From a virus (lineage: Duplodnaviria; Heunggongvirae; Uroviricota; Caudoviricetes), in the IMG/VR virus record IMGVR_UViG_3300032220_000751: a stretch of 64,000 nucleotides of DNA. One strand, written 5' to 3'. The notes below the pieces were generated by a model. It was not told the DNA's origin. It saw only the letters and a list, made by a program, of their open reading frames with translations, and ran no database searches. Shown here piece by piece: positions 2,981 through 60,968 of this stretch; position 1 is the stretch's first letter, and every line of letters begins with the position of its first letter. Both the position numbers and the translations under genes were made by a program.

Positions 2981-3008
2981 TCCCTTTTCTTTTTGTATTC
3001 AAACGCAA

Positions 3009-3036
3009 TTAGAACACATATTACTAAGTTGATAAT
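3009..3036 (+). promoter_or_regulatory. candidate sigma70-like promoter TTAGAA-N16-GATAAT
   Basis: Hexamers read by eye in the 165-nt gap upstream of gene 3085. Confidence 0.25.
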
Positions 3037-3084
3037 AGAACGGTCTATTGTCCTCTTTTTAACTATGTTTAAGGAAGCCCTATA

Positions 3085-3690
3085 ATGGCACTGCTCACTA
3101 CCAAGAAATACAACATCAAAGAAGTCATCTATCGTTCCAACCCGAACCTGGGTCTGCAAGAGAACATCATGATGGCCATGGACAAGAAGAAATCCGATTT
3201 GCTGTTCCCCGGTCAAGTCAAGCCCAAGCCAGTCATCAACTACGAGTTCTATCTGGACTACGATGGCTACAAAGCCAAACTGCCGGACAGCGCCAAGTGC
3301 ACGATCACCAAATCGTACATGGACACGCTCATCAACAACGCCACCAAGCAATTCGAATCCACTCGCCTGGCGTACAACAAGTTCGTCAAGGCCGATGACA
3401 AGAGCATCGAATACTGGCATGAGTTGAAGCGTTTCGTGGTCGATGATGAAACCTATGTCAATGACATCGACGCAGCTATCGAAAATGCATGCTACCACAG
3501 TACGCGTGCATTCGCAGAAGGTCGCTACATGCCACGTCGTGTCGTCCGTACGCAGTATCTCATCATCACAACCCACAACCTGTTCGCATTCAATCCGTGG
3601 GCTGAAGGTGAAGCACTGCGCTTGCGTCGTCTGTTTGAAGAGATGCAAGAAGAACGTCTGAAGAATCTGTCCATCACTCCTTGTAAGTAA
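3085..3690 (+). CDS. hypothetical protein (201 aa)
   Basis: RBS AAGGAAG; ORF. Confidence 0.6.
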   Translation: MALLTTKKYNIKEVIYRSNPNLGLQENIMMAMDKKKSDLLFPGQVKPKPVINYEFYLDYDGYKAKLPDSAKCTITKSYMDTLINNATKQFESTRLAYNKFVKADDKSIEYWHELKRFVVDDETYVNDIDAAIENACYHSTRAFAEGRYMPRRVVRTQYLIITTHNLFAFNPWAEGEALRLRRLFEEMQEERLKNLSITPCK

Positions 3691-3716: not shown

Positions 3717-5450
3717 ATGTTTTCTCATCCATTTTATTTCTTCTGGCAAAACAAGTCTCCGTTTTCCAATTGGTATATCCGGAACTTCAAAGTCAGAGAA
3801 ATGATCTTCAATTGCGTTGAGCAATACATGATGTACCAGAAGGCTGTGTTCTTTGGTGATTTGGAAACTGCTAAGCTTATCATGGCAGAATCCAAACCAA
3901 AGAAGCAGAAAGAACTGGGACGTCAGGTCAAAGGCTTCAATCGCATTGATTGGGATTCTGTAGTTGAGGATATCCTCTACACGGCTATCAAGGCCAAGTT
4001 CACCCAGCATCGTGATCTGGGTGAATTGATGCTAAGCATCACTGCGAAAGAATTCGTCGAAGCATCTCCGTATGACCGGATCTATGGTGTGCGATTGTCA
4101 ATGAATGACCCTCGCATCCAGTCAAAGAAATTATGGCTCGGCCTAAACAAGCTTGGGCGTGTGCTGACCCGAGTACGTAACTGGCTGTATGTCAAGAAGA
4201 AAGGAAAGAACATGATCGATCTGTCCCCGCATCATCCAGAAGTCATTATTCTGGATTTGACAGATGTGTTTGCCGATGCACAACGGCGGCTGGCACATAC
4301 GGGTGATGTGAATCTGCTGTTGCCCTCGATGGTCAGTAGCATCATGACGTGTGTGGAATGTCGTGATCCCGATATGACCCGGTTGGAAGTCTATGTCTCT
4401 GACTTGATCGAACAGTTCAAGAATGATGGCATGCCAACTGAGGATGGTGAAATTGCCGCAGCTATCGCTAAAGACATCGGACGTAAGCTTGTCTATGAGA
4501 TCGAGAAGATCGGCGGTTACGATGAGAACGATAATTTCGATTACGATGTCTATCGTGTGGAAATCTCCGGAGCTGTGGTACTGACTCGTCTGGATCCTGT
4601 GGGCGCTCGTGCTCAAGAGAAGAGGAAAGAATGGTTTCCTGATCCGGAAGCTGTTGGTAAATCGATTTCTTCAGGTAGCAGGGTTGACCATATGGTCATG
4701 GTCGATGACGACGGCAATCCAATCAAGACGTCTGTAGTGGATATCCCTGAACCCACTCAAGAACAGAAGGATCATATTGCTTCTTTCGAAGTTAAACTTC
4801 CTTCGCTTGAAGAAATGGAGAATCATCCGCATCAAGGATACTTCCAAGGCCAACACAATGTGCAATATGCTGCTAAGTTAGGAGAAGTAGTCACTCCTGA
4901 ACAGCAGCTGCAGAACTACGAAGCACATGAGCGTCGTGTGGTTATCGAGGAGAATGTCCCGGCTGCTGGTTTCCGTAGTCGTACGGAGTACGATCTCCCC
5001 AGTGAAGACTTTACTTCATCGACTGTTGAGTCCAATATCAGCAACAAAATCGATAAGATGCTTCATAGCCCTAAGTTCAATATGAAGTTTGCTCCTTGCG
5101 ATGATCTGGGAGAAATCTCTGTCAGATTGAACGGTCAAACCATTCAGAATCCAACACCTGAACAATTGTCCGAAGTTGCCAATAAGTTGGGTTTCGATGC
5201 AGCTGACGTCATCATGGGACAAGACAAAGGTTATCGTGAGGTTCCCTTGTCTGAAGTCAAAGAGTCTCCTTATAAAGAGATTCTCGACAATGCGTTCCAG
5301 GATCAGGAAAGGGTTATCATCAATGCAGCTCCACGCTACGTACCCCTTGGTATCGTAGACGGCGATCAACAACAACAGAAGTGGAAAGACACTACAACAG
5401 GGGAAGTGCTTACCAACGAAGAACGATTTAATCGAGTTTCAAAAGACTAA
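3717..5450 (+). CDS. NADAR (YbiA/DUF1768-like) domain protein with a ~400-aa C-terminal extension of unknown function
   Basis: N-terminal ~160 aa carry the NADAR hallmark (FFW..SPFSNWY...F...EQYMMYQKAVFFGD...LGRQVKGFNRIDWDSV...AKFTQ...L..T....VEASPYDRIYGV); the rest has no motif I recognise. Confidence 0.7.
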   Translation: MFSHPFYFFWQNKSPFSNWYIRNFKVREMIFNCVEQYMMYQKAVFFGDLETAKLIMAESKPKKQKELGRQVKGFNRIDWDSVVEDILYTAIKAKFTQHRDLGELMLSITAKEFVEASPYDRIYGVRLSMNDPRIQSKKLWLGLNKLGRVLTRVRNWLYVKKKGKNMIDLSPHHPEVIILDLTDVFADAQRRLAHTGDVNLLLPSMVSSIMTCVECRDPDMTRLEVYVSDLIEQFKNDGMPTEDGEIAAAIAKDIGRKLVYEIEKIGGYDENDNFDYDVYRVEISGAVVLTRLDPVGARAQEKRKEWFPDPEAVGKSISSGSRVDHMVMVDDDGNPIKTSVVDIPEPTQEQKDHIASFEVKLPSLEEMENHPHQGYFQGQHNVQYAAKLGEVVTPEQQLQNYEAHERRVVIEENVPAAGFRSRTEYDLPSEDFTSSTVESNISNKIDKMLHSPKFNMKFAPCDDLGEISVRLNGQTIQNPTPEQLSEVANKLGFDAADVIMGQDKGYREVPLSEVKESPYKEILDNAFQDQERVIINAAPRYVPLGIVDGDQQQQKWKDTTTGEVLTNEERFNRVSKD

Positions 5451-9926: not shown

Positions 9927-10790
9927 ATGCTGAAAGTTCAAGTCGATTACCACGATGATGCTTTGTTCGACAGCACAGACTTCGAGCCGAAGATCATTAC
10001 TTTCCCTGGCGGGGAATGTCATGTGACTCTACCGGATGAATTGCTGGACAATCCACGTGCCCGTGCGTTTACCATTAAGACGCTGATCAAGAACGCCGAC
10101 CACATCATGCATTTGCTGATGGTTACAGACGCGATTCGTCGCCACTACGCGGGCTATCCGATTTTCCTACACATGCCGTACATTCCGTACGCACGTCAAG
10201 ACCGCGTAGCCAACCACGGCGAGTCTTTGTCGGCTCGTGTGTTCTGTGATCTGATCAATGCTCAGAACTACGAAGTCGTCAGCGTCGCTGATCCGCACAG
10301 CCCGGTGGTGGAAGCGCTGCTGAACCGCATCGACGTGGTCGATCCGATTTACATGGTCGAAGAAGTGCTGCAAAGCGATCTCTTCAAGGACGGTGTGGCG
10401 CTGGTTGCACCGGACGCAGGTGCCCGAAAGCGTGTGCTGAATATGGCCATGGAAGTCAACGTCGAAGACGTGATCTTTGCTGACAAGGTACGCGATACCA
10501 AGACTGGCAAGATCACCGGTACCGTGGTCAACAACGAAGTTCCTCAAGGTAAAGCTATTCTGGTCGTGGATGACATCTGTGACGGTGGTCGTACCTTCCT
10601 GGAACTGGGTAAGGTCTTAAAGGAGAAGACCGACCAACCGCTGTACCTGTACATTACCCATGGCATCTTCAGCAAAGGTCTGGAAGAACTCGGTAAGTAT
10701 TACGACCGTATCTTCACTGCCTACAACTGGAATGATGAAGAAGCCAACAATCCCCAACTGACCTTGATCAAGGAAGGAAATCTGCTGTGA
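9927..10790 (+). CDS. ribose-phosphate pyrophosphokinase (Prs) family protein; candidate ADP-ribose pyrophosphate synthetase of an NAD+ reconstitution pathway
   Basis: Prs motifs PYIPYARQDR and the nucleotide/PRPP loop VVDDICDGGRT; collinear with E. coli Prs; translationally coupled to the downstream NampT-like gene. Confidence 0.8.
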   Translation: MLKVQVDYHDDALFDSTDFEPKIITFPGGECHVTLPDELLDNPRARAFTIKTLIKNADHIMHLLMVTDAIRRHYAGYPIFLHMPYIPYARQDRVANHGESLSARVFCDLINAQNYEVVSVADPHSPVVEALLNRIDVVDPIYMVEEVLQSDLFKDGVALVAPDAGARKRVLNMAMEVNVEDVIFADKVRDTKTGKITGTVVNNEVPQGKAILVVDDICDGGRTFLELGKVLKEKTDQPLYLYITHGIFSKGLEELGKYYDRIFTAYNWNDEEANNPQLTLIKEGNLL

Positions 10791-12490
10791 GCGAACAACA
10801 AGAAAACATCGTCGAGAAAGTTGCCAATGGTCTCGTGCCATTCAACCTGGCAGACTTCTACAAGACTGGTCACCCAGCCATGTATCCTCAGGGTACTGAA
10901 ACCCTGGTGGCCAACTTTACCCCGCGCTCGGCCAAGTACGCTCCGGTACTGCCGGAATTGTTCGATAACAAGATCGTTTGGTTCGGCCTGCGTGGTTTCA
11001 TCCAGGAATGGCTGATCGATGTCTTCAATCGCGAGTTCTTCCAAAAACCCAAGGAAGAAGCCATCAAGAAGTACCGTCGTCGTATGGACACTTCTCTCGG
11101 TCCTGGTGCTGTCAGCATGAAGAAGCTGGAACTGCTCCATGATCTGGGTTACCTTCCGCTGGAAATTCGCGCCCTACCTGAAGGCGCTCGTGTGAACATC
11201 AAGGTACCGCCGGTACTGTTCATCAACACCGCTGGCCCTGAACTGTCGTGGGTGGCTACCTACTTCGAAACTCTGATGTCCTGCGAAAGCTGGAAAATCT
11301 CGACGGTCGGTACCATTGCTTTCGAGTTCCACAAGCTGCTGACCTACTTCGCTGTGTCCACTGGCGCGCCTCTGGACTTTGTGCGTTGGCAAGGTCACGA
11401 CTTCTCGTTCCGTGGCATGTCGGGTGTGCATGATGCAATGCGTACCTGCTCGGCTCACTTGCTGTCGTTCATGGGTACCGATACCATCCCGTCTATCGAC
11501 TACCTGGAAGACTACTACGACGCCGATTCCGACAAGGAACTGGTGGGTGGTTCGATCCCAGCATCGGAACACAGTGTGATGGCTCTGCGCATTCTGCTGA
11601 AGCTGAAGGAACTGGCCAAGCTGCCGGAGAACGCAGGTCTGACTCACAAGCAACTACGTAAGGCAGCTGAGCTGGAAGTGGTGCGTGACTATGCCATCAA
11701 GGAATACGACACTGGTCTGGTCTCCATGGTCTCGGATACCTTCGACTTCTGGAATGTGATCACTCACATCGCCAAGGTCCTGAAGCCTGAAATCATGCAA
11801 CGCAAGCCGGATGTGTTCGGTAATGCCAAGGTCGTCTTCCGTCCTGATTCGGGTGATCCAGTGTACATCCTGACCGGTTACAAGAACAGTGAAATCGTTG
11901 CTAATGGCGATGGTACTTTCACTGTCAATGCAACTGGCAGAGTCATCCAAGATCACGAGCGTCGTGGTGCTGTGGAATGCCTGTGGGATATCTTCGGTGG
12001 TACCGAAACCAGTCTCGGCTACAAGCTGCTGGATTCCCACGTCGGTCTGATCTACGGTGACTCGATCACTCTGCCGCGTGCTATGCGTATCCTGCGTCGT
12101 CTGCAAGACAAGGGCTTCGCATCCACCAACGTAGTCTTCGGTATCGGTTCGTACACTTACAACATGCTCTCCCGTGACGTCTTCGGTTGGGCCATGAAGG
12201 CGGTGTACGCGGTAGTCGATGGTGAGCCGGTTGAGATCTACAAGGATCCAGCAACTGACGACGGTATGAAGAAGTCGGCCAAGGGTCTGCTGCGTGTGGA
12301 TAAGGTAGGTAACAACTACTTCCTGACGGAGAACTGCACCCCGGAAGAGTTCGAAGGCGGTGAACTCAAGCCGGTGTTCCGTAATGGTGAGATGTTGGTC
12401 AAGCCTACCTTTAAGGAAGCCAAGGAACGTCTGCACCTTTCTTGGACGTGTCCGGAACCTAATAGCATCGTCTGGCAAGACGCTGCTTAA
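10787..12490 (+). CDS. nicotinamide phosphoribosyltransferase (NampT/NadV) family protein; alternatively Namat-like
   Basis: GTG start overlapping the Prs stop (GTGA), RBS AAGGAAGGAAA; NampT motifs DFYKTGH, LPLEIRALPEG, GHDFSFRG, PASEHS, VSDTFDFW, RPDSGDP, GDSIT, collinear with human NAMPT. Confidence 0.85.
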   Translation: MSEQQENIVEKVANGLVPFNLADFYKTGHPAMYPQGTETLVANFTPRSAKYAPVLPELFDNKIVWFGLRGFIQEWLIDVFNREFFQKPKEEAIKKYRRRMDTSLGPGAVSMKKLELLHDLGYLPLEIRALPEGARVNIKVPPVLFINTAGPELSWVATYFETLMSCESWKISTVGTIAFEFHKLLTYFAVSTGAPLDFVRWQGHDFSFRGMSGVHDAMRTCSAHLLSFMGTDTIPSIDYLEDYYDADSDKELVGGSIPASEHSVMALRILLKLKELAKLPENAGLTHKQLRKAAELEVVRDYAIKEYDTGLVSMVSDTFDFWNVITHIAKVLKPEIMQRKPDVFGNAKVVFRPDSGDPVYILTGYKNSEIVANGDGTFTVNATGRVIQDHERRGAVECLWDIFGGTETSLGYKLLDSHVGLIYGDSITLPRAMRILRRLQDKGFASTNVVFGIGSYTYNMLSRDVFGWAMKAVYAVVDGEPVEIYKDPATDDGMKKSAKGLLRVDKVGNNYFLTENCTPEEFEGGELKPVFRNGEMLVKPTFKEAKERLHLSWTCPEPNSIVWQDAA

Positions 12491-12503
12491 TTAGGGCATA
12501 AGG

Positions 12504-12534
12504 ACCGGTGTGGGTAACTCCACACCGGTTTTCA
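12504..12534 (+). terminator. rho-independent terminator
   Basis: ACCGGTGTGG-gtaact-CCACACCGGT then TTTT. Confidence 0.85.
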
Positions 12535-13206: not shown

Positions 13207-14079
13207 ATGTCCGATCAACCCCAAGACCAAACACACACCTTATTGCCTGAACGCTTATATACCACAGCTGTCCAGTGGTCCAAGTTCGTCTCGATGACTG
13301 ACCCCATCGTTGAAGAGACGGTGCCCAACGTGGTGCAGCTGCACAAGAACCTCCTGCAGTACACCTCCCTCATGGGCGGTAACCTGTACTGCCTGCCTGC
13401 TGGTAATGGCGGTCGCTTCGCTATCCTCCACAAACATCGTGCTGGTGTGAACCTGCGCGGTTGGGTGATGGGTGTTTATCAGGGTGATCTCGAACAGCTG
13501 TTCGAACGTTTCACCGAAGAACTCCCTCCCAACATCGGTTACAACATCCAGTTCGCTCGTCCACTGGTATTGACCAAGGACATCAACTCGATGGACTTCG
13601 CTGGTATTCTCGACGGCTATAGCGAAGCTGGTGATGAAGGATCGACTGGCATTAAGGGTAAGTTCATTACGAATACCGATGAACTGCTTCCGTATGACGA
13701 GATGATCAGCGAACTGTTGCAGGTCATGTCCGAGATGCCGGAGTATGAAAGCTACAAGATCGAAATGGTGCGTGCGCTGAAGATTGACTCCGTCACAGCT
13801 AATGTGATTAAGGTTGAACTGATCATCGCCATCACCTGGAAGTCCTGGGTCAAACAGGATAACTCGGTCGACAAGCTGTCGCAGCATGTGACCATCAATT
13901 TCTATCCAGAAATCGAATCAAGTGCAGACTTCACGACCAAAGAGGGATGCGAACGTCACCTGCGTGCATTGCAACAGCGCAAAGAAGCCGGTGGTGAAGT
14001 CAATGAGGTGACGATCAATGCACTGAATGATCGCATCAAGACTTTCGTCTCGATGACCCAAGGCGGCGAACTGAATTAA
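13207..14079 (+). CDS. hypothetical protein (290 aa)
   Basis: RBS AAGGAA; ORF. Confidence 0.6.
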   Translation: MSDQPQDQTHTLLPERLYTTAVQWSKFVSMTDPIVEETVPNVVQLHKNLLQYTSLMGGNLYCLPAGNGGRFAILHKHRAGVNLRGWVMGVYQGDLEQLFERFTEELPPNIGYNIQFARPLVLTKDINSMDFAGILDGYSEAGDEGSTGIKGKFITNTDELLPYDEMISELLQVMSEMPEYESYKIEMVRALKIDSVTANVIKVELIIAITWKSWVKQDNSVDKLSQHVTINFYPEIESSADFTTKEGCERHLRALQQRKEAGGEVNEVTINALNDRIKTFVSMTQGGELN

Positions 14080-14086
14080 TTTGTAG

Positions 14087-14116
14087 ATACATATCACTAA
14101 AGTGTAGGTTAACCTA
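14087..14116 (+). promoter_or_regulatory. conserved promoter-like motif ATACATATCACTAAAGTGTAGGTTAACCTAAC (copy 1)
   Basis: 13-mer ATACATATCACTA is identical at 39454 and nearly identical at 52373; always intergenic, just upstream of an RBS. Confidence 0.5.
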
Positions 14117-14139: not shown

Positions 14140-14952
14140 ATGAACACGAAATATCTGGACGAAGTATTGAAGCAAAAGGGCTACTCTTTAGTGATTAACG
14201 AACACCGCTACGGTAGTGGGTTGTACGCGGTTATCTCTTACGGCATCGAGAATGCGTCTGATATTGCTGACAGCTTTACCGGCGGTGATGATGATTACGA
14301 TATCGTAGAACAGTTCTACGGTAGTGGTAATCCGATTGCACTCTATAGCACCAAAGAAACTATCAGTGAACTGATGGTTGATCTTGATGAGAAATGTCGT
14401 CGTCTTCTGGCTATTGGCTGGTACGACTGGACAGATCTCATGTGTTATGTAGCAGATGAGTATCGAGCATGTTGTGAGAACCCTGGTGGTGAGCGTGATT
14501 TCTCAGCTGCCCTTCAGGTTAAGATCAGTGACATGAAGGCAAGGCTAGATGCAGTCTATAGTCTAGGCGGTACAGCACCTCCTATGAAGAAAGAAGATGG
14601 TCAGCAGTTAATTCGACTGCTTAAAATGAACATCGAAGTCAAACCTGAATTGAAGGATTTGTTCAGAGGCTTGTTTGGTGGCTATGTCGCTGACGGTGTC
14701 CAAGGTGAGCATTCTATTTATGCAAGTAATTGGAAGGTAATCAACAATTACCTATTAGCACCGTTTCGTGCAATACCTGAATTGAGTGGTGATGAAATTC
14801 TGGATCCGAAAGAGGGTATTCCACTGCTGCGTTGTTTGTCTTCAGGTGAATCGCAGATCTTTGAACTGACATTGGAATCATGTCCTAGGGGTAGTCCGAT
14901 TCCCTTGCGTCTACCAGTGCAGTTTGTTCTCGTTATCGACAACTTCAATTAA
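14140..14952 (+). CDS. hypothetical protein (270 aa)
   Basis: ORF downstream of the motif; RBS-like AAAGAGAAA. Confidence 0.55.
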   Translation: MNTKYLDEVLKQKGYSLVINEHRYGSGLYAVISYGIENASDIADSFTGGDDDYDIVEQFYGSGNPIALYSTKETISELMVDLDEKCRRLLAIGWYDWTDLMCYVADEYRACCENPGGERDFSAALQVKISDMKARLDAVYSLGGTAPPMKKEDGQQLIRLLKMNIEVKPELKDLFRGLFGGYVADGVQGEHSIYASNWKVINNYLLAPFRAIPELSGDEILDPKEGIPLLRCLSSGESQIFELTLESCPRGSPIPLRLPVQFVLVIDNFN

Positions 14953-15599: not shown

Positions 15600-15641
15600 A
15601 TTTACCGTCCTAGCCTATAGTGTGTTGAGAAGAGAAATATC

Positions 15642-15670
15642 TTGAAGACGAGTGCCAGAATTGGTATATG
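15642..15670 (+). promoter_or_regulatory. candidate sigma70-like promoter TTGAAG-N17-TATATG
   Basis: Hexamers with 17-nt spacer at the start of a 275-nt ORF-free gap; the same TATATGG -10 recurs at 26280. Confidence 0.35.
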
Positions 15671-15676
15671 GAACCG

Positions 15677-15824
15677 ATAGCTACATGCTTGTGGTGCATG
15701 GATGTTGATCGGTGAGTCGGTGGAGCACCACTGATCGGCTGTCATTGGCCGGACGCTAAGCGCAATTGGGGATTCGCATTCCCCCTCAGAGAGCAATGAC
15801 CATACTTCGAGAGGCTACAAAAAG
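15677..15824 (+). ncRNA. structured untranslated leader or small RNA (nested hairpins; GTCATTG...CAATGAC closing helix)
   Basis: No ORF in any frame; helices CCGAT/ATCGG, CATGC/GCATG, GTGG/CCAC, GGGGA/TCCCC and the 7-bp GTCATTG/CAATGAC pairing read directly. Confidence 0.3.
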
Positions 15825-15850
15825 CGGGAGGATTCGTCCTCTCGTTTTAT
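15825..15850 (+). terminator. rho-independent terminator or attenuator
   Basis: CGGGAGGA-ttcg-TCCTCTCG then TTTTAT, 25 nt before the next RBS. Confidence 0.7.
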
Positions 15851-15875
15851 GCCCTTAACCTAAAAAGGAAAACAA

Positions 15876-17092: not shown

Positions 17093-17704
17093 ATGATTAC
17101 CGTTAAGCGATACGTGCCAGGCTTTGTTGACATTGATGAAGAAGAGAAGGTTCCGACCAATGTCGATTGCCCCGTAGAGATTTTGAAGATTCCATTCGTT
17201 GCTCGATTGTTTACCGAAGGCTTCAGTCTCACAGTCAAGAAGTATCCTGAAGAAGAACGAATTCATCTGAAGGCTATGTTAGTGAACGACGAGGCTTCGC
17301 ATACTGTTGCTTTCATCAATGGTGTTAGCATCAGTGAATTGCTTACTGTATTTCCCATCGAAGAACTCACGTTTAAAGAACGTGCTGTACGAAACGTTAT
17401 AACCCCACTTACCATCAACATACTGGATAACGATGGGCGTTCCGGATTGCTCTTTTTATCCATCCAGCAGCAGTGGGGTATGCCTGGTGATAAATTAGAT
17501 TGGGCGATTGAAGTATTGAAAGAAGTCATCAGTAACAGTCCTCCATACGAAGGTTATGAGATCGTCAATATCTTCGACCTTGAAGTACATCTGAAGACTG
17601 GTAAACATTACAGTTTGGAAGTTAGTGCTACAGTGCAGGGTATGAGCAGCGGACAGTCACTTGCTTTTCAACATCGCGTCACTGTTAACTTTCTGAAAGG
17701 ATAA
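17093..17704 (+). CDS. hypothetical protein (203 aa), tandem paralogue of 17708
   Basis: RBS AAAGGA; N-terminus MITVKRYVPG...EILKIPF aligns with the next gene. Confidence 0.55.
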   Translation: MITVKRYVPGFVDIDEEEKVPTNVDCPVEILKIPFVARLFTEGFSLTVKKYPEEERIHLKAMLVNDEASHTVAFINGVSISELLTVFPIEELTFKERAVRNVITPLTINILDNDGRSGLLFLSIQQQWGMPGDKLDWAIEVLKEVISNSPPYEGYEIVNIFDLEVHLKTGKHYSLEVSATVQGMSSGQSLAFQHRVTVNFLKG

Positions 17705-17707
17705 ATC

Positions 17708-18436
17708 GTGATTCAAATTCGTCGTTATGTAGCGGGTGATTACGATCCCCGCACAGGTCCACTGCATTTCGCAGTGCAGACCCCACAGGAAATCCTGCAA
17801 CAACCATTCATTCGTAGCGTCGTCGAAGAAGATGGCTTCGTCTTGAAGTTCACTGACGATGGTCAAGGTCGCATCATCATTCAAGGTGAGTGCCCGATGT
17901 CCAAACAACGCAAGATCGTTGCTGTGGTTGAAGGTACTAACGTTGATGAGATGAAGAAAATCATGCCGTACCTTCAGCATACCTTGGCTACCATTGCTGA
18001 ACGTAACCGTATTGCACCGGTGGAGATTCGTTACGAGCCGCCGTCGATTGACTTCCTCGAACGTTTCATGGATAGCTTTGTAGCAGCTGTCCGTTATAAC
18101 GACTACAAGGGTGTGGCGCATCTCATCAAGAATGAGATCCTGAAGAACTCTCCAGTCTTCATCGGTTACACGGTATACGAAGCCATGAAGTTCGCTATGT
18201 CTTTGAACACTCGTGGCAACGGTATTGAACTGGTGGTGCTGTGTGGTGTTCATGCATGTCGTAACGGTCTGAAGGTAGAAGAGTTCATGTTCTCTCAAGA
18301 AGTGAAGATCACTTTCGGTACGATGCCACATGCTGAGAAGGAACCGACTGCAGCACCACGGACAGCAGTCCAAGAGACATCGCTGATCGACACCCCCATC
18401 GTCTCGTCTGGACTGCACTCGAATCTGGCACTCTAG
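17708..18436 (+). CDS. hypothetical protein (242 aa), tandem paralogue of 17093
   Basis: GTG start behind AAAGGA; (M)IQIRRYVAG...EILQQPF aligns with 17093. Confidence 0.55.
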   Translation: MIQIRRYVAGDYDPRTGPLHFAVQTPQEILQQPFIRSVVEEDGFVLKFTDDGQGRIIIQGECPMSKQRKIVAVVEGTNVDEMKKIMPYLQHTLATIAERNRIAPVEIRYEPPSIDFLERFMDSFVAAVRYNDYKGVAHLIKNEILKNSPVFIGYTVYEAMKFAMSLNTRGNGIELVVLCGVHACRNGLKVEEFMFSQEVKITFGTMPHAEKEPTAAPRTAVQETSLIDTPIVSSGLHSNLAL

Positions 18437-18480: not shown

Positions 18481-18939
18481 ATGGGTATTTGTCCAACTGT
18501 AGATTTGAGAAGTTTAGATGCATTCTTGAAAAATCGCGGTATGGCGTTTGGTGAGTCGCGCTATGGTGATAAAGACTATCAGTTGATGATCTCGCATAGC
18601 GTGAAACACGCCCACAGCGTCATCGATACTGAAAATGAATCAGGTGATGGATTCTCGTGGGTTGATGACTATTATGGAAGTAATCCCATTTCCATGTATC
18701 TCACCGGACCCAATCTCCTGACATGCTTGCGAGAAGCTAACCGTCGTGCTTATGCGATTCAGTCGGTAGGTGTGAAGGAATGGGAAGATCTGATGGGTGA
18801 ATTTAATCAACTCTTCTATCTCGCTTGCAATAGTTTCCGAGAAGGCGTGTCTCGTAAACCCATTAGTCCAGAGCTTCAAGCTAAACGCGATGATTATGCG
18901 CAACGCATGGAAAAAGCACTGAGAACATTTATCTATTAA
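18481..18939 (+). CDS. hypothetical protein (152 aa)
   Basis: RBS AAAGGAG; ORF. Confidence 0.55.
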   Translation: MGICPTVDLRSLDAFLKNRGMAFGESRYGDKDYQLMISHSVKHAHSVIDTENESGDGFSWVDDYYGSNPISMYLTGPNLLTCLREANRRAYAIQSVGVKEWEDLMGEFNQLFYLACNSFREGVSRKPISPELQAKRDDYAQRMEKALRTFIY

Positions 18940-18950
18940 GGAATAAAACA

Positions 18951-20006
18951 ATGCAACAATATTTAGCCGTCATGCGTGACATCCGTGAGAACGGGGAATG
19001 GAAAGAAAACCGCACTGGCATTCGCACCCTGATGATCGATGGTGCTATGGCACGCTACGATCTGCGTAAAGGCTTTCCTGCCGTAACCACTAAGAAGCTG
19101 GCATGGAATGCCGTTAAGGGTGAGCTGTGCGGTTTCCTGCGCGGTTTCACCAGCGCTGCTGACTTCCGTGACTTCGGTTGTCGCGTCTGGGATCAAAATG
19201 CAAATGAAAACAAGCAATGGCTGGACAATCCTTTCCGTAAGGGCACTGATCATCTGGGTCCGGTCTATGGTGCTCAATGGCGTAACTGGAAAGCTTACAA
19301 GAAGATCAATGACTATTCACAGAACGCTACTAACATCGCACACAAGTTGATCAAAGAAGACGGCTGGGAATCCATTGTCGACGATGCTGAAAACATTGAC
19401 TTCGCTATCTACTACAAGGAGATCGATCAGATCCGTGAATGTATCACCAAGATCTTCAAGGATCCTGACAACCGTCGCAACATCTTCCACGCCTGGAACT
19501 TCGCTGAACTGGATGAGATGGCTCTGGTACCGTGCCACCTGCTGTACCAGTTCCTGCCGAACAAGGATACCAAGGAAATGTCGCTGGTCATGTACCAACG
19601 CAGCTGCGACTACTTCCTGGGCGTGCCGTTCAATGTGGCGTCGGCTTCTCTGTTGTTGGAGATCGTCTGTCACCTGACTGGCTACAAGCCTAAGAACTTC
19701 GTTCACTTCATGGCTGATGTACATCTTTACGAAAACCATCTGGATCAAGTTGATGAACAGCTGTCGCGTGAACCGCTCCCACTGCCGACTTTGAAGATCA
19801 CGGGTCTGAAGTCCTACGATGAGATCTACAAGCAAGCTTTCATCGAACGTCCGCCGCGTGATGGTGTATATCCGGCAGGATACGATCCTCAAGCAGACAC
19901 CATGATCGATCTGGTCATGAAGGAAATCGACAACCTCCACCCCGACATGTTCGAGTTGGAGAACTATCAACATCACGCCGCTATCAAAGCACCGATGGCA
20001 GTCTAA
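18951..20006 (+). CDS. thyA: thymidylate synthase (ThyA family) with two large insertions (351 aa)
   Basis: Collinear with E. coli ThyA: MQQYL..M, TGI.T, AWN..EL..MAL.PCH (catalytic Cys), QRSCDYFLGVPFNVAS (Asn as in dUMP-specific enzymes), HLY.NH; ~55-aa insert before the PCH region and ~60-aa C-terminal insert. Confidence 0.88.
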   Translation: MQQYLAVMRDIRENGEWKENRTGIRTLMIDGAMARYDLRKGFPAVTTKKLAWNAVKGELCGFLRGFTSAADFRDFGCRVWDQNANENKQWLDNPFRKGTDHLGPVYGAQWRNWKAYKKINDYSQNATNIAHKLIKEDGWESIVDDAENIDFAIYYKEIDQIRECITKIFKDPDNRRNIFHAWNFAELDEMALVPCHLLYQFLPNKDTKEMSLVMYQRSCDYFLGVPFNVASASLLLEIVCHLTGYKPKNFVHFMADVHLYENHLDQVDEQLSREPLPLPTLKITGLKSYDEIYKQAFIERPPRDGVYPAGYDPQADTMIDLVMKEIDNLHPDMFELENYQHHAAIKAPMAV

Positions 20007-20970: not shown

Positions 20971-23453
<2,483 letters not shown>

Positions 23454-23647: not shown

Positions 23648-23961
23648 TAAAAGAGAAGGGATCATTGGACTGGGTGGATACTCCGGTACGTCGTGATTAC
23701 TTTGTTGAACCGCCAACGGTTGCGATGACTATGATGTCCACCGTTAGTCCAGCTGCATTGAAAGCAGCTAAGCAGCGGGTATTGGCTAGACGTCGTGCAA
23801 AGGTAATAAGAGACCTGAAGCTCAATGAAGGGTTGGAGCACCACATCGTAGCACAAGGTCAACTCCAGATCAATGAAATGATCAGGAAGAAAGAAGAACG
23901 CGGTGAGAAGCACGGTATGGAGTATTACCTTATGCTTCAGCTTGTAGTTGACAATACCTAA
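23602..23961 (+). CDS. hypothetical protein (119 aa)
   Basis: ATG 23602 behind AAGGAAG, inside ORF 23491-23961; overlaps the 3' end of the upstream gene. Confidence 0.45.
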   Translation: MEKDNVTRFPEKKPVVKEKGSLDWVDTPVRRDYFVEPPTVAMTMMSTVSPAALKAAKQRVLARRRAKVIRDLKLNEGLEHHIVAQGQLQINEMIRKKEERGEKHGMEYYLMLQLVVDNT

Positions 23962-24000
23962 AAAGCCAGTAAAATAGTGGATTCTAAATAATTTCAGATC

Positions 24001-24025
24001 TATATAACTGGCTTGAGTAGTAAGA
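24001..24025 (+). promoter_or_regulatory. variant of the conserved promoter-like motif (TATATAACTGGCTTGAGTAGTAAG)
   Basis: Shares GCTTGAGTA with the 52373 copy; intergenic, upstream of gene 24090. Confidence 0.3.
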
Positions 24026-26173: not shown

Positions 26174-26193
26174 CAGGCATAACTGACTGAGCT

Positions 26194-26259
26194 AGCTAGG
26201 ATAGAATCTTAATTGATTCTATCCTAGCTGCTCTTTCTCTTATGTCTTTTTTTTTTTGA
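26194..26259 (+). terminator. strong rho-independent terminator
   Basis: Perfect 15-bp stem AGCTAGGATAGAATC-ttaatt-GATTCTATCCTAGCT followed by T-rich sequence including a 13-T run. Confidence 0.9.
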
Positions 26260-32505: not shown

Positions 32506-33756
32506 ATGGAAGATACTCGCGTTTTAGCACGCATCGTCCGTATCGACGATGTTTTACCTCACCCCAATGCCGACAAGATGCAACTGGGCATCGTCGGTGG
32601 TTGGCAGTGCTGCATCAAACTGGACGAATTTAAGAAGGGCGATCTGGCCTTGTACTGCGAGATCGATTCTCTCTTGCCTGTCTCGGTCCCTGAATTTGCT
32701 TTCCTGGAAGACCGTAAGGAATCCATCAAGGTAGTCAACGAAGTCGTCTACTCCCGTATCAAGACGATCCGGCTGCGTAAGGAACTGTCCCAAGGTCTGT
32801 TGGGTAAGATCCCACGTCAACTGGGTAAAGTAGTTGAAGGTCAAGACGTGACTGAAGCACTTGGCATCATCAAATACGAGAAGAAGCAAACTCGTGTCAG
32901 TGACGGTCCTGAACTGAAACCTGGTCTGATCAAACGCTTCTGCGAATGGCTGAGGAAAGACATCAAGGATGATCTGCTGCTGCCATGGCCTTACTTCATC
33001 AAGAAGACAGAACAAGAGCGCGTTCAGAATCTGCATTCCCAGTACCTCAAAGCAGTTGAGGATGGTGAGACCTTTGAAGAATCGGTGAAGTTAAACGGTG
33101 AATCGTTTACTGCCTTCTTCGTATTCAAAGATGGTGTCCATGGTCACGCTGGTGTTTGCTCACGCAACTATGAGATCCAGACTACTGATGTAGTTTGGAC
33201 CTGGAAGCAATCCTTCCGTTATTGGCTGTCTCGCTTCGTGGGTGGTAACTCTCGTATTCTGCGGACCCGGCACTTTGTCTGGCCTGATTGGCGTACTGGC
33301 GTCAAAGCCGATGATGATCCATTCGTACGCCACTGGAAACGTTTGGATCTGGCTAAGAAGCTGGAAGACTACCAGTACAAGTCAGGTGTACAGATTGCCA
33401 TTCAGGGTGAGTTAGCTGGTCCTGGACATCAGAGCAATAAGGAAGGTCTGGAGACTGCTGACGTCTACGTGTATCAAGTATACGTGATCGATTCTGACTT
33501 CGGTATGAAGATGGGTCTGCTATTACCAGAAGACGCACGTCGGGTGACAGAGGAACTTGGTCTGAAGTACGTTCCTGTTCCTGAGAAGAACGCTAAGCTA
33601 CCACCTACCATCAAGGAAGCCTTGCTGCGTGCGGATGGTCCGGCTTATTTCGATAAGAGCCGCAGTCGTGAAGGTCTGGTCTACAAGAGCAATACCCGTG
33701 ACTTCTCGTTCAAGGTGATTAGTAACAAGTTCTTGGAAAAGAACGAGGACGAATAA
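32506..33756 (+). CDS. ATP-dependent RNA ligase-like nucleotidyltransferase with N-terminal tRNA-binding-type OB domain
   Basis: N-terminus VLPHPNADKMQLGIVGGW resembles the tRNA-binding (Myf-like) OB domain; motif I KLNGES (KxxG as in Rnl2/Rnl5), EGLVYK and FKVISNKF as motifs IV/V. Confidence 0.6.
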   Translation: MEDTRVLARIVRIDDVLPHPNADKMQLGIVGGWQCCIKLDEFKKGDLALYCEIDSLLPVSVPEFAFLEDRKESIKVVNEVVYSRIKTIRLRKELSQGLLGKIPRQLGKVVEGQDVTEALGIIKYEKKQTRVSDGPELKPGLIKRFCEWLRKDIKDDLLLPWPYFIKKTEQERVQNLHSQYLKAVEDGETFEESVKLNGESFTAFFVFKDGVHGHAGVCSRNYEIQTTDVVWTWKQSFRYWLSRFVGGNSRILRTRHFVWPDWRTGVKADDDPFVRHWKRLDLAKKLEDYQYKSGVQIAIQGELAGPGHQSNKEGLETADVYVYQVYVIDSDFGMKMGLLLPEDARRVTEELGLKYVPVPEKNAKLPPTIKEALLRADGPAYFDKSRSREGLVYKSNTRDFSFKVISNKFLEKNEDE

Positions 33757-33770
33757 CCTAGAAAATTGAA

Positions 33771-33796
33771 GACACTTATTATTAAAGTGTAGTAGG
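33771..33796 (+). promoter_or_regulatory. variant of the conserved promoter-like motif (GACACTTATTATTAAAGTGTAGTAGG)
   Basis: Shares TAAAGTGTAG with the 14087 copy; followed by hairpin AGGAGTT...AACTCCT. Confidence 0.3.
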
Positions 33797-33878
33797 AAAC
33801 AGGAGTTGCTTACAGAGAACTCCTGTCGTAGCACCTTTAGGCAACTGTGCCGCTAACTGAGTGATGAAAGGAATGATC

Positions 33879-36534: not shown

Positions 36535-36580
36535 GGGAGAGGGCTTAGGCTCTCTCCCTTTATGCCTTCTTATTTTTACT
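36535..36580 (+). terminator. rho-independent terminator
   Basis: GGGAGAGGGC-ttag-GCTCTCTCCC (1 mismatch) then TTTATGCCTTCTTATTTTT. Confidence 0.8.
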
Positions 36581-38236: not shown

Positions 38237-38848
38237 ATGCTGATCAAAAAGAATGACGACGGTTCATTTCAAGTACTGCTGGCTTATGAAGGTCAGACTA
38301 TCGGTAATCTCAAAGCAGTGGTGTCTGCTAAGGTCTTGGATGAAACTTATCTCGACTTCAAGACGGGTAAACGCCACTTCCAATCGGAACTGGATCATCC
38401 TCGCTATAAGTTTGATCCGATGAAACAAGCGCAAGCAATCATCGATGATAACTTAGGTGATCCTCAGATGGAAGCGATGGAGCGCGCTATGACGATCAAG
38501 CTTGAGAACGTCTGCGGTTACATCACTGACATGTTACTGCTTCGTCCTGAGTCTATCGGGATCGACATTCTGATTGGTACGTGGAAGTTCAACGGACCGA
38601 TGAAAGAAGTAGCAGAGAAGTGCTATAAGGAAACAGGTGATGTGAAACTGTCTCTGCGTGCATTCTCCAATGGTACCGGTACCTGCAACGGTATTAATGT
38701 CGTCAAGGTCATCACCTGGGACTTCGTTGACCCCAACGAAAAGTACAAGCAGGATCTGTACGAGACGCTTGGCCAAGAGAAGGCAGATAGCCTGATTCGT
38801 TATCTGAACAACGAACCCCTTACTCAACCGGATAATCATGCTGATTGA
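38237..38848 (+). CDS. hypothetical protein (203 aa), tandem paralogue of 38838
   Basis: RBS AAAAAGG; MLIKKNDDGSFQVLLA..., VCGYITD, ETGDVKL and VITWDF align with the next gene. Confidence 0.55.
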   Translation: MLIKKNDDGSFQVLLAYEGQTIGNLKAVVSAKVLDETYLDFKTGKRHFQSELDHPRYKFDPMKQAQAIIDDNLGDPQMEAMERAMTIKLENVCGYITDMLLLRPESIGIDILIGTWKFNGPMKEVAEKCYKETGDVKLSLRAFSNGTGTCNGINVVKVITWDFVDPNEKYKQDLYETLGQEKADSLIRYLNNEPLTQPDNHAD

Positions 38849-39452
38849 AAAATACGACGATGGTTCATGTTTGGTTCTGCTGGCGTTTACCGAACAGATC
38901 ATGAACAACAATGCGATCCTGACGTATACGGCGATCGATAAACTGATGCAGCGTTATAATAACGAAGAATGTCGTCGCAGTCCGTTTTATACGGAATACG
39001 GTCATCCGCATCTGGATCGTCGGGATTACTATACAGATGAACTGGATGGTGAAGGTAAGGTATTGAACGACCGCCTATTCCAGTTCAACATGGATCGTGT
39101 TTGCGGGATGATCGATGATCTGCATGTGGAGAAGCGCCCTAACCTGCGGCACATCTTGACCGGTGTTTGGTCACCCTATGGACCATATGCTTCTGAAGCA
39201 GCGAAGCTGATCCATGAAACAGGTCAAATCAAATTGGGTCCACGGTCACTGTGTGATTTGGTTTCCAATGGTAAAGGCGGTATGACTGGTACAGTAGCCA
39301 AACTCATTGGTTGGGACTTCATGAACCCGTATGACCAATCCATCACTTCCATGGCTAAACTGGATACACACATCTGTCATCCTGTTCGCTACTGGATAGA
39401 TGACAGTGCTCCTCCAGTCCCACTCCCAGAAAAACAACTCGAACTAGGTTGA
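38838..39452 (+). CDS. hypothetical protein (204 aa), tandem paralogue of 38237
   Basis: MLIEKYDDGSCLVLLA..., VCGMIDD, ETGQIKL, LIGWDF; overlaps the upstream gene by 11 nt. Confidence 0.55.
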   Translation: MLIEKYDDGSCLVLLAFTEQIMNNNAILTYTAIDKLMQRYNNEECRRSPFYTEYGHPHLDRRDYYTDELDGEGKVLNDRLFQFNMDRVCGMIDDLHVEKRPNLRHILTGVWSPYGPYASEAAKLIHETGQIKLGPRSLCDLVSNGKGGMTGTVAKLIGWDFMNPYDQSITSMAKLDTHICHPVRYWIDDSAPPVPLPEKQLELG

Positions 39453-39453
39453 G

Positions 39454-39481
39454 ATACATATCACTACTTTGGTAAAACAAA
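39454..39481 (+). promoter_or_regulatory. conserved promoter-like motif ATACATATCACTACTTTGGTAAAAC (copy 2)
   Basis: Identical 13-mer to 14087; begins 2 nt after the stop codon; followed by RBS AAAGGAG. Confidence 0.5.
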
Positions 39482-41249: not shown

Positions 41250-41279
41250 AAATAGGGAGAGGGCAACTTCTCCCTATTT
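41250..41279 (+). terminator. hairpin or terminator AAATAGGGAGA-gggcaact-TCTCCCTATTT
   Basis: 11-bp perfect stem; short T run. Confidence 0.6.
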
Positions 41280-41302
41280 ATGCCCATCGTAAAGGAAATG
41301 TA

Positions 41303-47258: not shown

Positions 47259-47272
47259 ACCGTAAGGCATAA

Positions 47273-47296
47273 AGAGGAGGGGAATTCCCCTCCTCT
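47273..47296 (+). terminator. perfect 24-nt palindrome AGAGGAGGGGAATTCCCCTCCTCT (hairpin; terminator or protein-binding site)
   Basis: Read directly; contains GAATTC; no downstream U-tract. Confidence 0.45.
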
Positions 47297-52313: not shown

Positions 52314-52344
52314 TCCCACACTCCTTCGGGGGTGTGGGTTTTGA
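52314..52344 (+). terminator. rho-independent terminator
   Basis: CCCACACTCC-ttcg-GGGGTGTGGG then TTTTGAT. Confidence 0.8.
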
Positions 52345-52372
52345 TCTCCTCTTTCTTTTTAGAAATAATTAG

Positions 52373-52400
52373 ACACATATCACTAGCTTGAGTAACAAAT
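52373..52400 (+). promoter_or_regulatory. conserved promoter-like motif ACACATATCACTAGCTTGAGTAACAAATG (copy 3)
   Basis: 12 of 13 identity to the 14087 and 39454 copies; sits between a terminator and the next RBS. Confidence 0.5.
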
Positions 52401-58341: not shown

Positions 58342-58818
58342 ATGTGTCAACATGATGGCACCAGACGTACTCCGATTATCTGTCCCGTTAAGGATCAGGG
58401 TCGGATTAAGTATTGGACTGGGGTTCAGGAAATGTACACCACTCTCACAGAGAACCTGAACCCTACAGAAGACGCTAACTTGATTCAGTACATCAAGTGT
58501 CAGCTGGACGAGGTTGAGAGAGTGTTAGAGAACCCTCTGAACCCTTACAGTGTACTGAAGTTCATCTCGACGTGCACGCATCAATATCATCGTGGATTGG
58601 TCGTCCATGACATTTATGCGATACATTGCAACGATGGTGATGACGCTATTAACATTCCGCGCTATTTCCAGAACTCAAGTAATCCAGATGAAGTAAAGAG
58701 CGTTTACTGGAGGGCGGAGTTTAAAGTCCGTGAAGTCTTCGTCCCGCATCTGAAGATGTATAAGGTCAATACATTCGAATTTGTGGGTATTTCTGTTCGT
58801 AAAGGAAAGTCAACATGA
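58342..58818 (+). CDS. hypothetical protein (158 aa)
   Basis: RBS GAAAGGAAAA; ORF. Confidence 0.5.
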   Translation: MCQHDGTRRTPIICPVKDQGRIKYWTGVQEMYTTLTENLNPTEDANLIQYIKCQLDEVERVLENPLNPYSVLKFISTCTHQYHRGLVVHDIYAIHCNDGDDAINIPRYFQNSSNPDEVKSVYWRAEFKVREVFVPHLKMYKVNTFEFVGISVRKGKST

Positions 58819-59420
58819 AAAGCATGACAAAGAAGCAGTTTGAAATCATCGATGCTGTGGTCAAGCAGCGTTTCATCAGCGTGTTGTTCGAGCTATATGA
58901 AATCAAACAAGGTCTGAGTAAGTTCAAACAGGATGCGGTCTTTGGTGAGTTTCCTGGTTACAACACCAATGGGATGAACGCCTACGTTCACGATGGTTAT
59001 GTGAACGTAATCGATGGGTCTTTAGTCATCACGGATAAAGGCGAACAGCTTTTGGCGGACTATATTGGCGCCCATACCGTCATGGATGCCCATACCCGCT
59101 ATCAGTTCCTGAAAGAAGATATTCCTCGTAATGTCCGTGTTTACATCGCTCAATCCGTTTTCGGACTTTACACCTTCGGTATGGCGACGACTGACTTCGA
59201 TAAATGCGATGAAGACTGCGCGATGAATAATTCGCGTGTTCCTTATAGTTGGGATCAGATCGATCGCATGACGTTTATCAAACTTATTAAATATTTCTCT
59301 GAGGATGTGACGAGTACATTCCCGTTGGTCGATGACGGTCAAGGGTACTACTTCAGTGATCTGGGTGAAAAGGATCTGACGCTGCAAGATGAAGCAGAAG
59401 ATGCTGAAAAGGAGAAATGA
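58815..59420 (+). CDS. hypothetical protein (201 aa), distant member of the downstream paralogue family
   Basis: ATGA overlap; N-terminus QFEIIDAVVKQRF resembles the LxVDRAVK N-termini downstream. Confidence 0.5.
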   Translation: MKSMTKKQFEIIDAVVKQRFISVLFELYEIKQGLSKFKQDAVFGEFPGYNTNGMNAYVHDGYVNVIDGSLVITDKGEQLLADYIGAHTVMDAHTRYQFLKEDIPRNVRVYIAQSVFGLYTFGMATTDFDKCDEDCAMNNSRVPYSWDQIDRMTFIKLIKYFSEDVTSTFPLVDDGQGYYFSDLGEKDLTLQDEAEDAEKEK

Positions 59421-59770
59421 TGAGTAGTGTAGAAACCATGGAAGTCATCCTCAAGGCTTTGGAAGAAGCTCGTGACAAAGGCGAACTGAACTATGTAATC
59501 GTCGACGGCGCTTTGGATAGTAAGCGTATCAAGCTGATTCCCAAAGGTCCGTCTATCCATAGTCGCAATGTTCTTATCGTTCAGAAGAACCACAGCGAGC
59601 GTGATCTGGTGTTTAACGATTTGGGTCCTGGTGGTGGATTGCCTCACTATCGCTACTACTTCAAAACAGCAGATCTCATTCCAGGTAAAGAGAATTGCAA
59701 TGTCGAGAACATCGGGCGTGACGTTGTTGCTTATCTGATGGATGGCACTCTCCCGGAAGGAACAGCATGA
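59417..59770 (+). CDS. hypothetical protein (117 aa)
   Basis: ATGATG overlap; RBS AAAAGGAGAA. Confidence 0.5.
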   Translation: MMSSVETMEVILKALEEARDKGELNYVIVDGALDSKRIKLIPKGPSIHSRNVLIVQKNHSERDLVFNDLGPGGGLPHYRYYFKTADLIPGKENCNVENIGRDVVAYLMDGTLPEGTA

Positions 59771-60381
59771 CCAAACTGTGTATCGATATCCCTCGATACG
59801 CTGAGATCGACAGAGCAGTCAGGCATGGCACCCTGATTGCTGTGTTTAACGCACAGACCACTTCTGTGAAGATCCACAGCGAACTCGATACCCCAGCCAA
59901 CCGTGAAGCTGTAGCTAGAGGTTATCTGCTATATGACGTCCTCTTTGGTCAGTACCAGATCACTGAGAACGGCAAAGATCTCCTAAAGCAGTATGCAGGA
60001 CGGGATCACATTGGCTCAACGATTGCTTACATCAAGCGTCTCCAACGTACTGAGATCCATCCCAGGTGCCGTTATTGGCTGGGTGTGGTGTACTTTGCCA
60101 ACTATCCAGATAAGTATCGTTATACCAATGCAGAACTGGCCAAGTTGAACCGTATGCCTGATGAGCTGGGAAAGTATCTGGACATCATCGGGGTACCACG
60201 CTACTTGATTGATCTGACACGTAAAGACATCAACTTCTTACGGTCGTATCAGTTCGAGGAGTTTGACAACAAGTTCTGGCATAGTTATCAACAGAGTGAT
60301 CTGGGTCGCTTTGACCGACACATGGTCATGGACTACGTCGCTGGATGCAATGAAGCCAACAGGAAAGGAACCACACTGTGA
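59767..60381 (+). CDS. hypothetical protein (204 aa), paralogue family member A
   Basis: ATGA overlap; IDRAVRHGTL N-terminus and W..S C-terminal region. Confidence 0.55.
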   Translation: MTKLCIDIPRYAEIDRAVRHGTLIAVFNAQTTSVKIHSELDTPANREAVARGYLLYDVLFGQYQITENGKDLLKQYAGRDHIGSTIAYIKRLQRTEIHPRCRYWLGVVYFANYPDKYRYTNAELAKLNRMPDELGKYLDIIGVPRYLIDLTRKDINFLRSYQFEEFDNKFWHSYQQSDLGRFDRHMVMDYVAGCNEANRKGTTL

Positions 60382-60968
60382 ACTTAATGGAATATCTCCA
60401 GGTAGACCGTGCTGTTAAAACCAAGCAACTGTATCTGACTTACGATGTGGTCTATCGTAATGGCGCAATCAATGAAGCAGCGCGCCTTGAAGGATCTGAT
60501 GCTTGGGTTGATGAAGCACTGGTACGTCAGTTCATGCGGGTTGAACGTGACGGTAGCTTGGCGATCTGTAATCAAGGCATTAAGCTACTCTTGAATTACA
60601 CTGGGACAAGTAACCTGGAAGATGCCGTTGCTAAATATCTCAGGTTAGTTGGTACTCAGTTGCCTATTCAGATCCGTGGCTTGATCTGCTCTAAGTGGTA
60701 TGCAAGCGGTATTCAATTAGATGCACTTGACGATGAACGTATTCAGTTCGTCATCAATGGCGTGTGTGATGACCTGCATGTACCCACACACCTGCATGAA
60801 GTTACCCGACAGCAATACAACTACCTGCGCAACTTTAACGAGGCATGGTGGAATTCCATTAAGGACATCCTTCCGGCCTACTTTACCGATCCTATCGGTC
60901 AAAAGGATCTGCTGTGGTATCTTGCAGCAGACATGGAACCAGAGAAAGAAAAAGGACTATGGATCTGA
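60378..60968 (+). CDS. hypothetical protein (196 aa), paralogue family member B
   Basis: GTG start overlapping the upstream stop; (M)NLMEYLQVDRAVK aligns residue-for-residue with MDLRTFLEVDRAVK of the next gene; C-terminus WWNS...PAYFT. Confidence 0.55.
   Translation: MNLMEYLQVDRAVKTKQLYLTYDVVYRNGAINEAARLEGSDAWVDEALVRQFMRVERDGSLAICNQGIKLLLNYTGTSNLEDAVAKYLRLVGTQLPIQIRGLICSKWYASGIQLDALDDERIQFVINGVCDDLHVPTHLHEVTRQQYNYLRNFNEAWWNSIKDILPAYFTDPIGQKDLLWYLAADMEPEKEKGLWI

Follow-up and report, generated by a model that had tools for sequence, protein, structure and literature searches.

A recurrent intergenic element in an uncultivated jumbo phage resembles the early promoters of phiKZ-type phages

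What is the short sequence that recurs between the genes of this phage, and which RNA polymerase might read it? The initial annotation had pointed to a 13-mer, ATACATATCACTA, as the mark of a phage-specific promoter class unlike sigma-70 promoters. The window, that is, the whole stretch of 64,000 nucleotides analyzed, belongs to a parent contig of 310,154 bp from an uncultivated metagenomic jumbo phage (JGI 3300043572, Ga0480284_0000014). We read the 64-kb window together with 8.4 kb upstream (contig L001) and 17.6 kb downstream (contigs L117 and L122), 90 kb in all. Proteins of the window were also found on ENA and Logan contigs, and the overlapping contigs were essentially identical to the window (0-1 mismatch). 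Open reading frames of every length were present only on the + strand of the window, and the longest one in the region read encodes 677 aa.

The 13-mer occurs exactly at 14087 and 39454, and the variant ACACATATCACTA occurs at 52373, all on the + strand, in agreement with the initial annotation. A simple calculation predicts approximately 0.002 additional exact matches to a 13-mer by chance over 2 x 64 kb. When up to two mismatches were allowed, five matches were obtained, compared to 1.63 expected. The sequences at 24001 and 33771, which had been listed as related variants, are true members of the family because they align in register over approximately 35 nt. A copy that had been missed is located at 3014 (ACACATATTACTA), in intergenic DNA behind a terminator. 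Four more copies were found in the 26 kb of flanking sequence, at L001:77, L117:11851, L117:17590, and L122:~16734 (the last one weaker), and these were likewise intergenic and on the + strand. In total, 10 copies were identified in 90 kb, 6 of them in the window, at a density of approximately 1 per 9 kb. They are referred to here as A to J, with B to G in the window.

The intergenic location proposed for the first copies held for the entire family: 10/10 copies were intergenic, on the + strand, and co-oriented with the genes, and intergenic DNA constitutes 7.8% of the sequence. In leave-one-out scoring, held-out sites reached 19.4-38.4 bits and the best non-site reached 14.0-17.7 bits (both strands, 90 kb), and every copy outscored all background positions. 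Two weaker echoes that had been suggested at ~36580 and ~57470 scored -9.3 and 3.7 bits, respectively, and are not members. An unbiased count of intergenic 8-mers placed CATATCAC, ACATATCA, and ATATCACT at the top, beside the ribosome-binding site and the T-runs of terminators. A search of IMG/VR viral contigs with the pattern AGAYACATATCACTA yielded single, scattered, chance-like matches among the matches listed. Distant homologues were obtained solely for the 218-aa protein encoded after promoter I; they occur in unrelated phages, from which the motif is absent and one of which has plain sigma-70 promoters.

To describe the element, the ten copies were aligned on an invariant G that lies 4 nt past the 11-mer ACATATCACTA. 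The alignment revealed that the 13-mer is the core of an element of approximately 38 bp. Its upstream part, from -34 to -23, is A/T-rich and roughly ATTCAAAATAA-like. AGAY follows at -19 to -16, and a -10-like core, ACATATCAC(TA), extends from -15 to -5, with TATCAC at -12 to -7. The core is followed by a six-base spacer and then by T at -1 and G at +1, which are invariant in 10/10 copies; the G is the predicted start. The TG.GTA element that had been noted downstream of the 13-mer comes down to the TG, which is invariant and was read as -1/+1; variable initial transcribed sequence follows it. The hexamer is changed to TATTAC in copy B, TATAAC in D, TATTAT in E, and TATCAT in J. C is present at -9 in 7 of the 10 copies, and known relatives have T at this position.

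The six sites of the window are all on the + strand and precede a gene. Promoter B (2996-3035) has its predicted +1 at G 3031 in front of a gene starting at 3085, and scored 25.0 bits in the leave-one-out analysis. It lies approximately 45 nt past the terminator at 2951-2970. Promoter C (14069-14108; predicted +1 G 14104; gene start 14140; 25.6 bits) contains the exact 13-mer and is the copy reported originally; its sequence from -35 to +4 is AACTGAATTAATTTGTAGATACATATCACTAAAGT-G-TAG. Promoter D (23980-24019) scored 27.6 bits, with a predicted +1 at G 24015 and a gene start at 24090, and promoter E (33754-33793) scored 19.4 bits, with a predicted +1 at G 33789 and a gene start at 33861. The second exact 13-mer is contained in promoter F (39436-39475; predicted +1 G 39471; 24.0 bits), for which the gene start at 39492 gives a predicted leader of 21 nt. 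Promoter G (52355-52394), the copy with ACACATATCACTA, has its predicted +1 at G 52390 and a gene start at 52435, and scored 24.9 bits. The placement of the motif 25-50 nt upstream of a ribosome-binding site, as described earlier, is roughly right, but the distance from the predicted +1 to the start codon ranges from 21 to 135 nt. Near-consensus sigma-70-type promoters adjoin two of the sites, namely TTGACA-16-TAAAAT (23948-23975, 11/12) beside promoter D and TTAACT-16-TATAAT (3059-3086, 10/12) beside promoter B. These neighbours may indicate dual control, or may be due to chance.

The layout of the element was compared with those of known jumbo phage promoters. Early-promoter consensuses have been tabulated for N1M2, OBP, 201phi2-1, EL, and phiKZ (PMC7058600 Table 2). 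The consensus of N1M2, a Klebsiella jumbo phage related to phiKZ, is TBYAWWWWWTTTCARRYAKATATTATYWAAGTGWA, and that of OBP is BSHAWWWWWTTTYARRYAKATATTATYWWADTG (PMC7058600); the promoter sets of N1M2 and OBP are predictions, not mapped starts. Copy C (TTTGTAGATACATATCACTAAAGTGTA) agrees nearly base for base with the N1M2 consensus (...CARRYAKATATTATYWAAGTGWA). The copies have in common with N1M2 and OBP a layout of approximately 35 nt that consists of an A/T-rich upstream part, (C)AGAY, an ATAT-containing core, YWAAGT, and G. They differ in that the consensus core is TATCAC here and TATTAT in N1M2 and OBP, and in that the T-run before CAGR is weaker here.

Both strands of 82 kb were searched with a matrix made from 25 published N1M2 sites (PMC7058600 Table S4). 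The top six positions were copies C (25.4 bits), D (22.4 bits), I (19.3 bits), E (17.2 bits), G (16.6 bits), and H (12.8 bits), and copies B, F, and A were within the top 13. The null maximum had a mean of 8.8 bits (sd 2.5), and the largest value of 50 shuffles was 17.7 bits. In promoter D, TTTCAGATCTATATAAC is identical at 15/17 positions to TTTCAGACCTATATTAC in front of N1M2 pORF41 (PMC7058600 Table S4). The reverse scan, in which our own matrix was applied to N1M2 20-52 kb, ranked pORF41 (21.6 bits) and pORF47 (19.7 bits) first, compared to a null maximum of 18.4 bits. It also recovered the site of pORF51, which stands in front of the gene for the N1M2 polymerase beta subunit. This phage and N1M2 share the placement of sites at operon starts, a similar density, and reciprocal recognition by matrices, and protein-level relatedness to N1M2 was not detected in the region examined. 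N1M2 has 31 sites in 253 kb (PMC7058600) and AR9 has 41 early promoters (PMC5312081); by our own arithmetic, the density here is of the same order as in these two phages.

Bacillus phage AR9 provided a second matrix, made from 33 of its early promoters whose starts had been determined experimentally (PMC5312081 Table S2). The early promoters of AR9 have the consensus AAATATATATTAT-(6N)-G(+1); they were mapped by dRNA-seq and primer extension, and their activity is independent of protein synthesis (PMC5312081). Over 90 kb, the four best matches to the AR9 matrix were copies E, C, H, and B, with E the best, and 8/10 copies were among the top 14. The +1 of the AR9 matrix falls on the invariant G, for instance at 14104 in promoter C. 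Individually, the AR9-matrix scores are weak (at most 9.3 bits, compared to a mean null maximum of 9.6 bits) and do not exceed the shuffle maximum, so only the coincidence with the sites in position and register is informative. The register in common with AR9 is a hexamer at -12 to -7, six bases, and G at +1, often with T at -1. The core of copy E, TATTAT, is that of AR9, N1M2, and OBP, and is followed by TAAAGTGTA. Unlike these copies, the AR9 element is nearly pure A/T and is devoid of the AGAY and ATTCAAA parts.

In phiKZ and 201phi2-1, early promoters with the core TATATTAC are read by the virion RNA polymerase, and their -10, -20, and -30 regions are conserved (PMC8244752, PMC11512511, PMC10914365). 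The early promoters of phiKZ and phiR1-37 have a conserved start 6 nt past the element (PMC5312081). The copies described here share with phiKZ and 201phi2-1 an AT-rich, extended -10-like core, which in copy B is the phiKZ core TATTAC, as well as conserved -20 (AGAY) and -30 (A/T-rich) regions and a predicted start approximately 6 nt past the core. They likewise precede small genes with no assigned function, in a genome with terminators that carry a TTAT(G) tail. They differ from phiKZ and 201phi2-1 by the C at -9 in most copies, and the starts here are predicted from sequence. The middle promoters of phiKZ, with TACT at -22, were considered and rejected; TACT is present in copy B only, and it is the early class that the elements match over 35 nt.

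The copies thus display an AT-rich core, -20 and -30 regions, reciprocal model recognition, and co-oriented placement in front of operons in a jumbo phage, as is the case for phiKZ-type early promoters. Position, orientation, spacing, depletion of sigma-70 sites, and the N1M2 and AR9 matches support the proposal of a phage-specific promoter class unlike sigma-70. We consider it very likely that the copies are promoters of some phage-specific kind. More specifically, they are probably phiKZ-type early promoters that would be read by an injected multisubunit polymerase of the phage, with transcription starting at the G. From these comparisons we infer where transcription starts, that it takes place early, and which polymerase carries it out.

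The ends of the transcription units were examined as well. An intrinsic terminator on the + strand (2951-2979; GCCCTCCCTTCGGGGAGGGC followed by a T-rich tail) closes the unit upstream of promoter B, and another one (52315-52346, + strand; CCCACACTCCTTCGGGGGTGTGGG followed by TTTT) closes the unit upstream of promoter G. GC-rich hairpins with a strong stem were found directly before TTATGCC at eight places. On the + strand, these comprise a phiKZ-style terminator at 36535-36566 and strong elements at 15822-15853 and 41251-41284. Two more are located outside the window, at ~66936 and ~74114 in window coordinates (L117/L122). The elements at 12495-12530, 47259-47296 (strong), and 26176-26230 have the opposite orientation, so that several of them point against the direction of all genes. 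TTATGCC was intergenic in 9/16 copies (binomial P = 7e-7). The phiKZ terminator consensus is BCCYCCCCHWWDGGGRRGGBYTTATKYYGT (PMC10914365). The hairpins with TTATGCC follow this grammar and resemble the TTATG tails in the terminator table of N1M2 (PMC7058600). TATG has also been reported as the start of phiKZ late promoters (PMC5312081).

Promoter I is itself part of a hairpin. The segment at L117 17590-17656 (window ~70792-70858) contains the promoter as the 5' arm of a hairpin with a 16-bp stem, followed by six T, and the folding energy is -32.7 kcal/mol (z -6.1). RNA that continues from the upstream gene into this segment would fold into the terminator, and transcripts starting at the promoter's own G (L117 17605) would be devoid of the 5' arm and escape termination. 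Such a layout would be a hard-wired insulator, which stops read-through and spares the transcripts of the promoter itself.

The polymerase was searched for in the region read. The 90 of 310 kb that were read yielded neither an RNA polymerase subunit nor a sigma factor. A profile of 11 sequences of the phiKZ gp55 family from cultured phages gave no protein of this contig among the 120 hits listed. All phage proteins in this list were closely related to the queries, an indication that a word filter limits the reach of this search. An exhaustive search for the gp55 family yielded 678 representatives (50% identity clusters) at E <= 1e-30, given without contig information.

Four other readings were weighed against an injected phage polymerase. 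The host core RNA polymerase might be redirected by a sigma-like or specificity factor of the phage, as by T4 gp55 or phiEco32 gp36, in a phage with no multisubunit polymerase of its own. A -10-like element at -12 to -7 and a pyrimidine(-1)/purine(+1) start would suit any multisubunit polymerase, a protein with a T4_Y16D domain is encoded nearby, and the 90 kb examined yielded no phage polymerase. However, a sigma factor was likewise not detected in these 90 kb, and the 35-nt match of the N1M2/OBP type and the phiKZ-style terminator tails point to phiKZ machinery, so that we regard a redirected host enzyme as unlikely. Ordinary sigma-70 promoters of the host share T-12, A-11, T-10, and A-8 between TATAAT and TATCAC, and by our own reading TTGAGA- or TAGACA-like hexamers stand approximately 17-18 nt upstream in some copies. 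Nevertheless, T-7, which is essential in sigma-70 promoters, is replaced by C in 8/10 copies, and the most conserved part of the element would be the spacer, which is not conserved in sigma-70 promoters. A consensus scan called none of the copies, and no called site coincided with the motif core. Sigma-70-like sites were in fact depleted, with 49 found compared to ~84 expected from shuffles (15 vs 27.2, 15 vs 26.8, and 19 vs 29.8 in the individual 20-kb segments). With T-7 missing and the scan negative, the sigma-70 reading was rejected as extremely improbable.

Promoters of the T7, T3, and SP6 type are phage-specific, are conserved over approximately 20 nt, and have CACTA close to the start. 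Copy C agrees at 12/18 positions with what we take to be the T7 consensus, TAATACGACTCACTATAG, and contains TCACTAAAG, presumably as in the T3 promoter, which would fit a T7-like single-subunit RNA polymerase. The invariant G, however, lies 5 nt past CACTA instead of 3, AAG is not kept in the other copies, and the conservation reaches -35, beyond a T7-type promoter. Moreover, ORFs in the region read do not exceed 677 aa, RNA_pol Pfam matches are absent from it, and the N1M2 and AR9 matrices explain all copies. This reading is highly improbable and was rejected because spacing and extent do not fit and because no such polymerase was seen in the region read. It is also very unlikely that the element is a repeat other than a promoter, such as a regulator operator, an RNA processing site, or a small mobile or recombination element. 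Copy I, being the 5' arm of a long hairpin, indicates a structural role for at least one copy. On the other hand, promoters B and G lie just behind strong terminators, where there is little RNA to process; this usual terminator-promoter arrangement argues against a signal at the RNA level. The orientation bias is strict, flanking repeats are absent, and the start-site register is part of the agreement with the promoters mapped in relatives.

If the copies are phiKZ-type early promoters, as we favour, a phage-encoded multisubunit RNA polymerase would be carried inside the virion and injected alongside the DNA. It would recognise the sites without a host sigma factor and initiate at the G. The rightward operons transcribed in this way would comprise small orphan genes as well as genes for nucleotide metabolism and NAD-related functions, and the transcripts would end at intrinsic terminators, some of which have the phiKZ-style TTATG tail.

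Genes of NAD metabolism were found in the region. A PRPP-synthetase-like gene (9927-10790) overlaps a NAMPT/NAPRTase-like gene (10787-12490), a pair that we take to resemble the phage NAD-reconstitution pathway NARP1. Farther upstream, the operon that starts at promoter B encodes a protein of 577 aa that carries a NADAR domain at its N-terminus (3717-5450). The NADAR gene and the PRPP-synthetase-like and NAMPT-like genes, which are under predicted early control, may counter host defences that deplete NAD.

We further compared the proteins and DNA of the region with those of other phages. For the flanking proteins, neither IMG/VR nor a set of 5.8 billion proteins contained relatives. A tblastn search of GenBank phages with the concatenated orphan proteins gave a generic DHH protein as the sole match, and the same search with three single proteins of the region gave zero matches. 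Similarity to cultured phages at the DNA level was weak (~67%) and confined to 20980-23013, an NAD-dependent DNA ligase gene, and 23010-23453, the adjacent GNAT acetyltransferase gene. The matches to these two genes were in Ralstonia and Burkholderia jumbo phages, at least one of which, FLC4-4C, carries an annotated gene for a phiKZ-type polymerase subunit. Two tandem paralogues of approximately 203 aa each (38237-38848 and 38838-39452) matched Pfam Peptidase_S80, with 29.9 bits (cutoff 23.4) and 19.1 bits, respectively. They also matched 'head maturation protease' families of PHROG, and their neighbourhood is otherwise non-structural. The prohead protease phiKZ gp175 is the type peptidase of the S80 family (PMC5694885). 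The pair may be taken as a weak hint of lineage, and the 310-kb size of the contig is another such hint.

The proteins of the region are thus without detectable similarity to those of cultured phiKZ-like phages, yet the predicted early-promoter and terminator grammar is kept. The putative promoters are members of a known family, from which their core deviates slightly (C at -9), and the jumbo phage that carries them is new and cannot otherwise be placed; the kind of signal is known, the genome is new, and the mechanism is not. Two more novel readings have a low probability: the promoter specificity of the injected polymerase may be ancient and nearly frozen across very distant jumbo lineages or, less probably still, the phage may lack a phiKZ-type polymerase and a different enzyme may read the same grammar. 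If the specificity is ancient and nearly frozen, it would provide a sequence-only marker for early regulons and for polymerase-carrying phages in metagenomes. The results provide a first transcription map, with ten predicted early starts and their operons, for an uncultivated phage of 310 kb in which nearly every gene is an orphan. They also suggest that, where proteins show no similarity, a metagenomic jumbo phage can be linked to phiKZ-type transcription by its promoter grammar alone. This link would be useful for annotating many such contigs, considering that the gp55 polymerase family alone comprises 678 clusters.

The orphan genes include runs of tandem paralogues, which were observed at 58815-61564, at 17093-18436, and at 14140-14952 together with 18481-18939. 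Four neighbours of approximately 200 aa have common ...VDRAVK... N-termini, and two more pairs appeared to be related by eye. These tandem orphan paralogues suggest that gene families have expanded locally in the early region. No matches were obtained when the window was scanned for Rfam families and tRNAs. The intergenic segment at 15600-15875 (276 nt), for which there was no Rfam match, has a fold of moderate stability, with a minimum free energy of -90.8 kcal/mol (z -2.5); it ends in a hairpin with TTATGCC and may be a small RNA candidate.

Downstream of the window, a stretch of approximately 2.5 kb (L117 18394-20510 / L122 10658-13215; window ~71.6-74.1 kb) contains no ORFs. It holds a gene for tRNA-Ile (anticodon AAU) at L117 18519-18593 and more tRNA-like 3' ends that were not called by ARAGORN, for example GGGTTCGAGTCCCGTGCCTGGCACCA at L117 ~19476-19511. 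The uncalled 3' ends may belong to interrupted or degenerate tRNA genes. The gene upstream of this stretch has a distant homologue in another phage (L123), where it likewise precedes a tRNA cluster.
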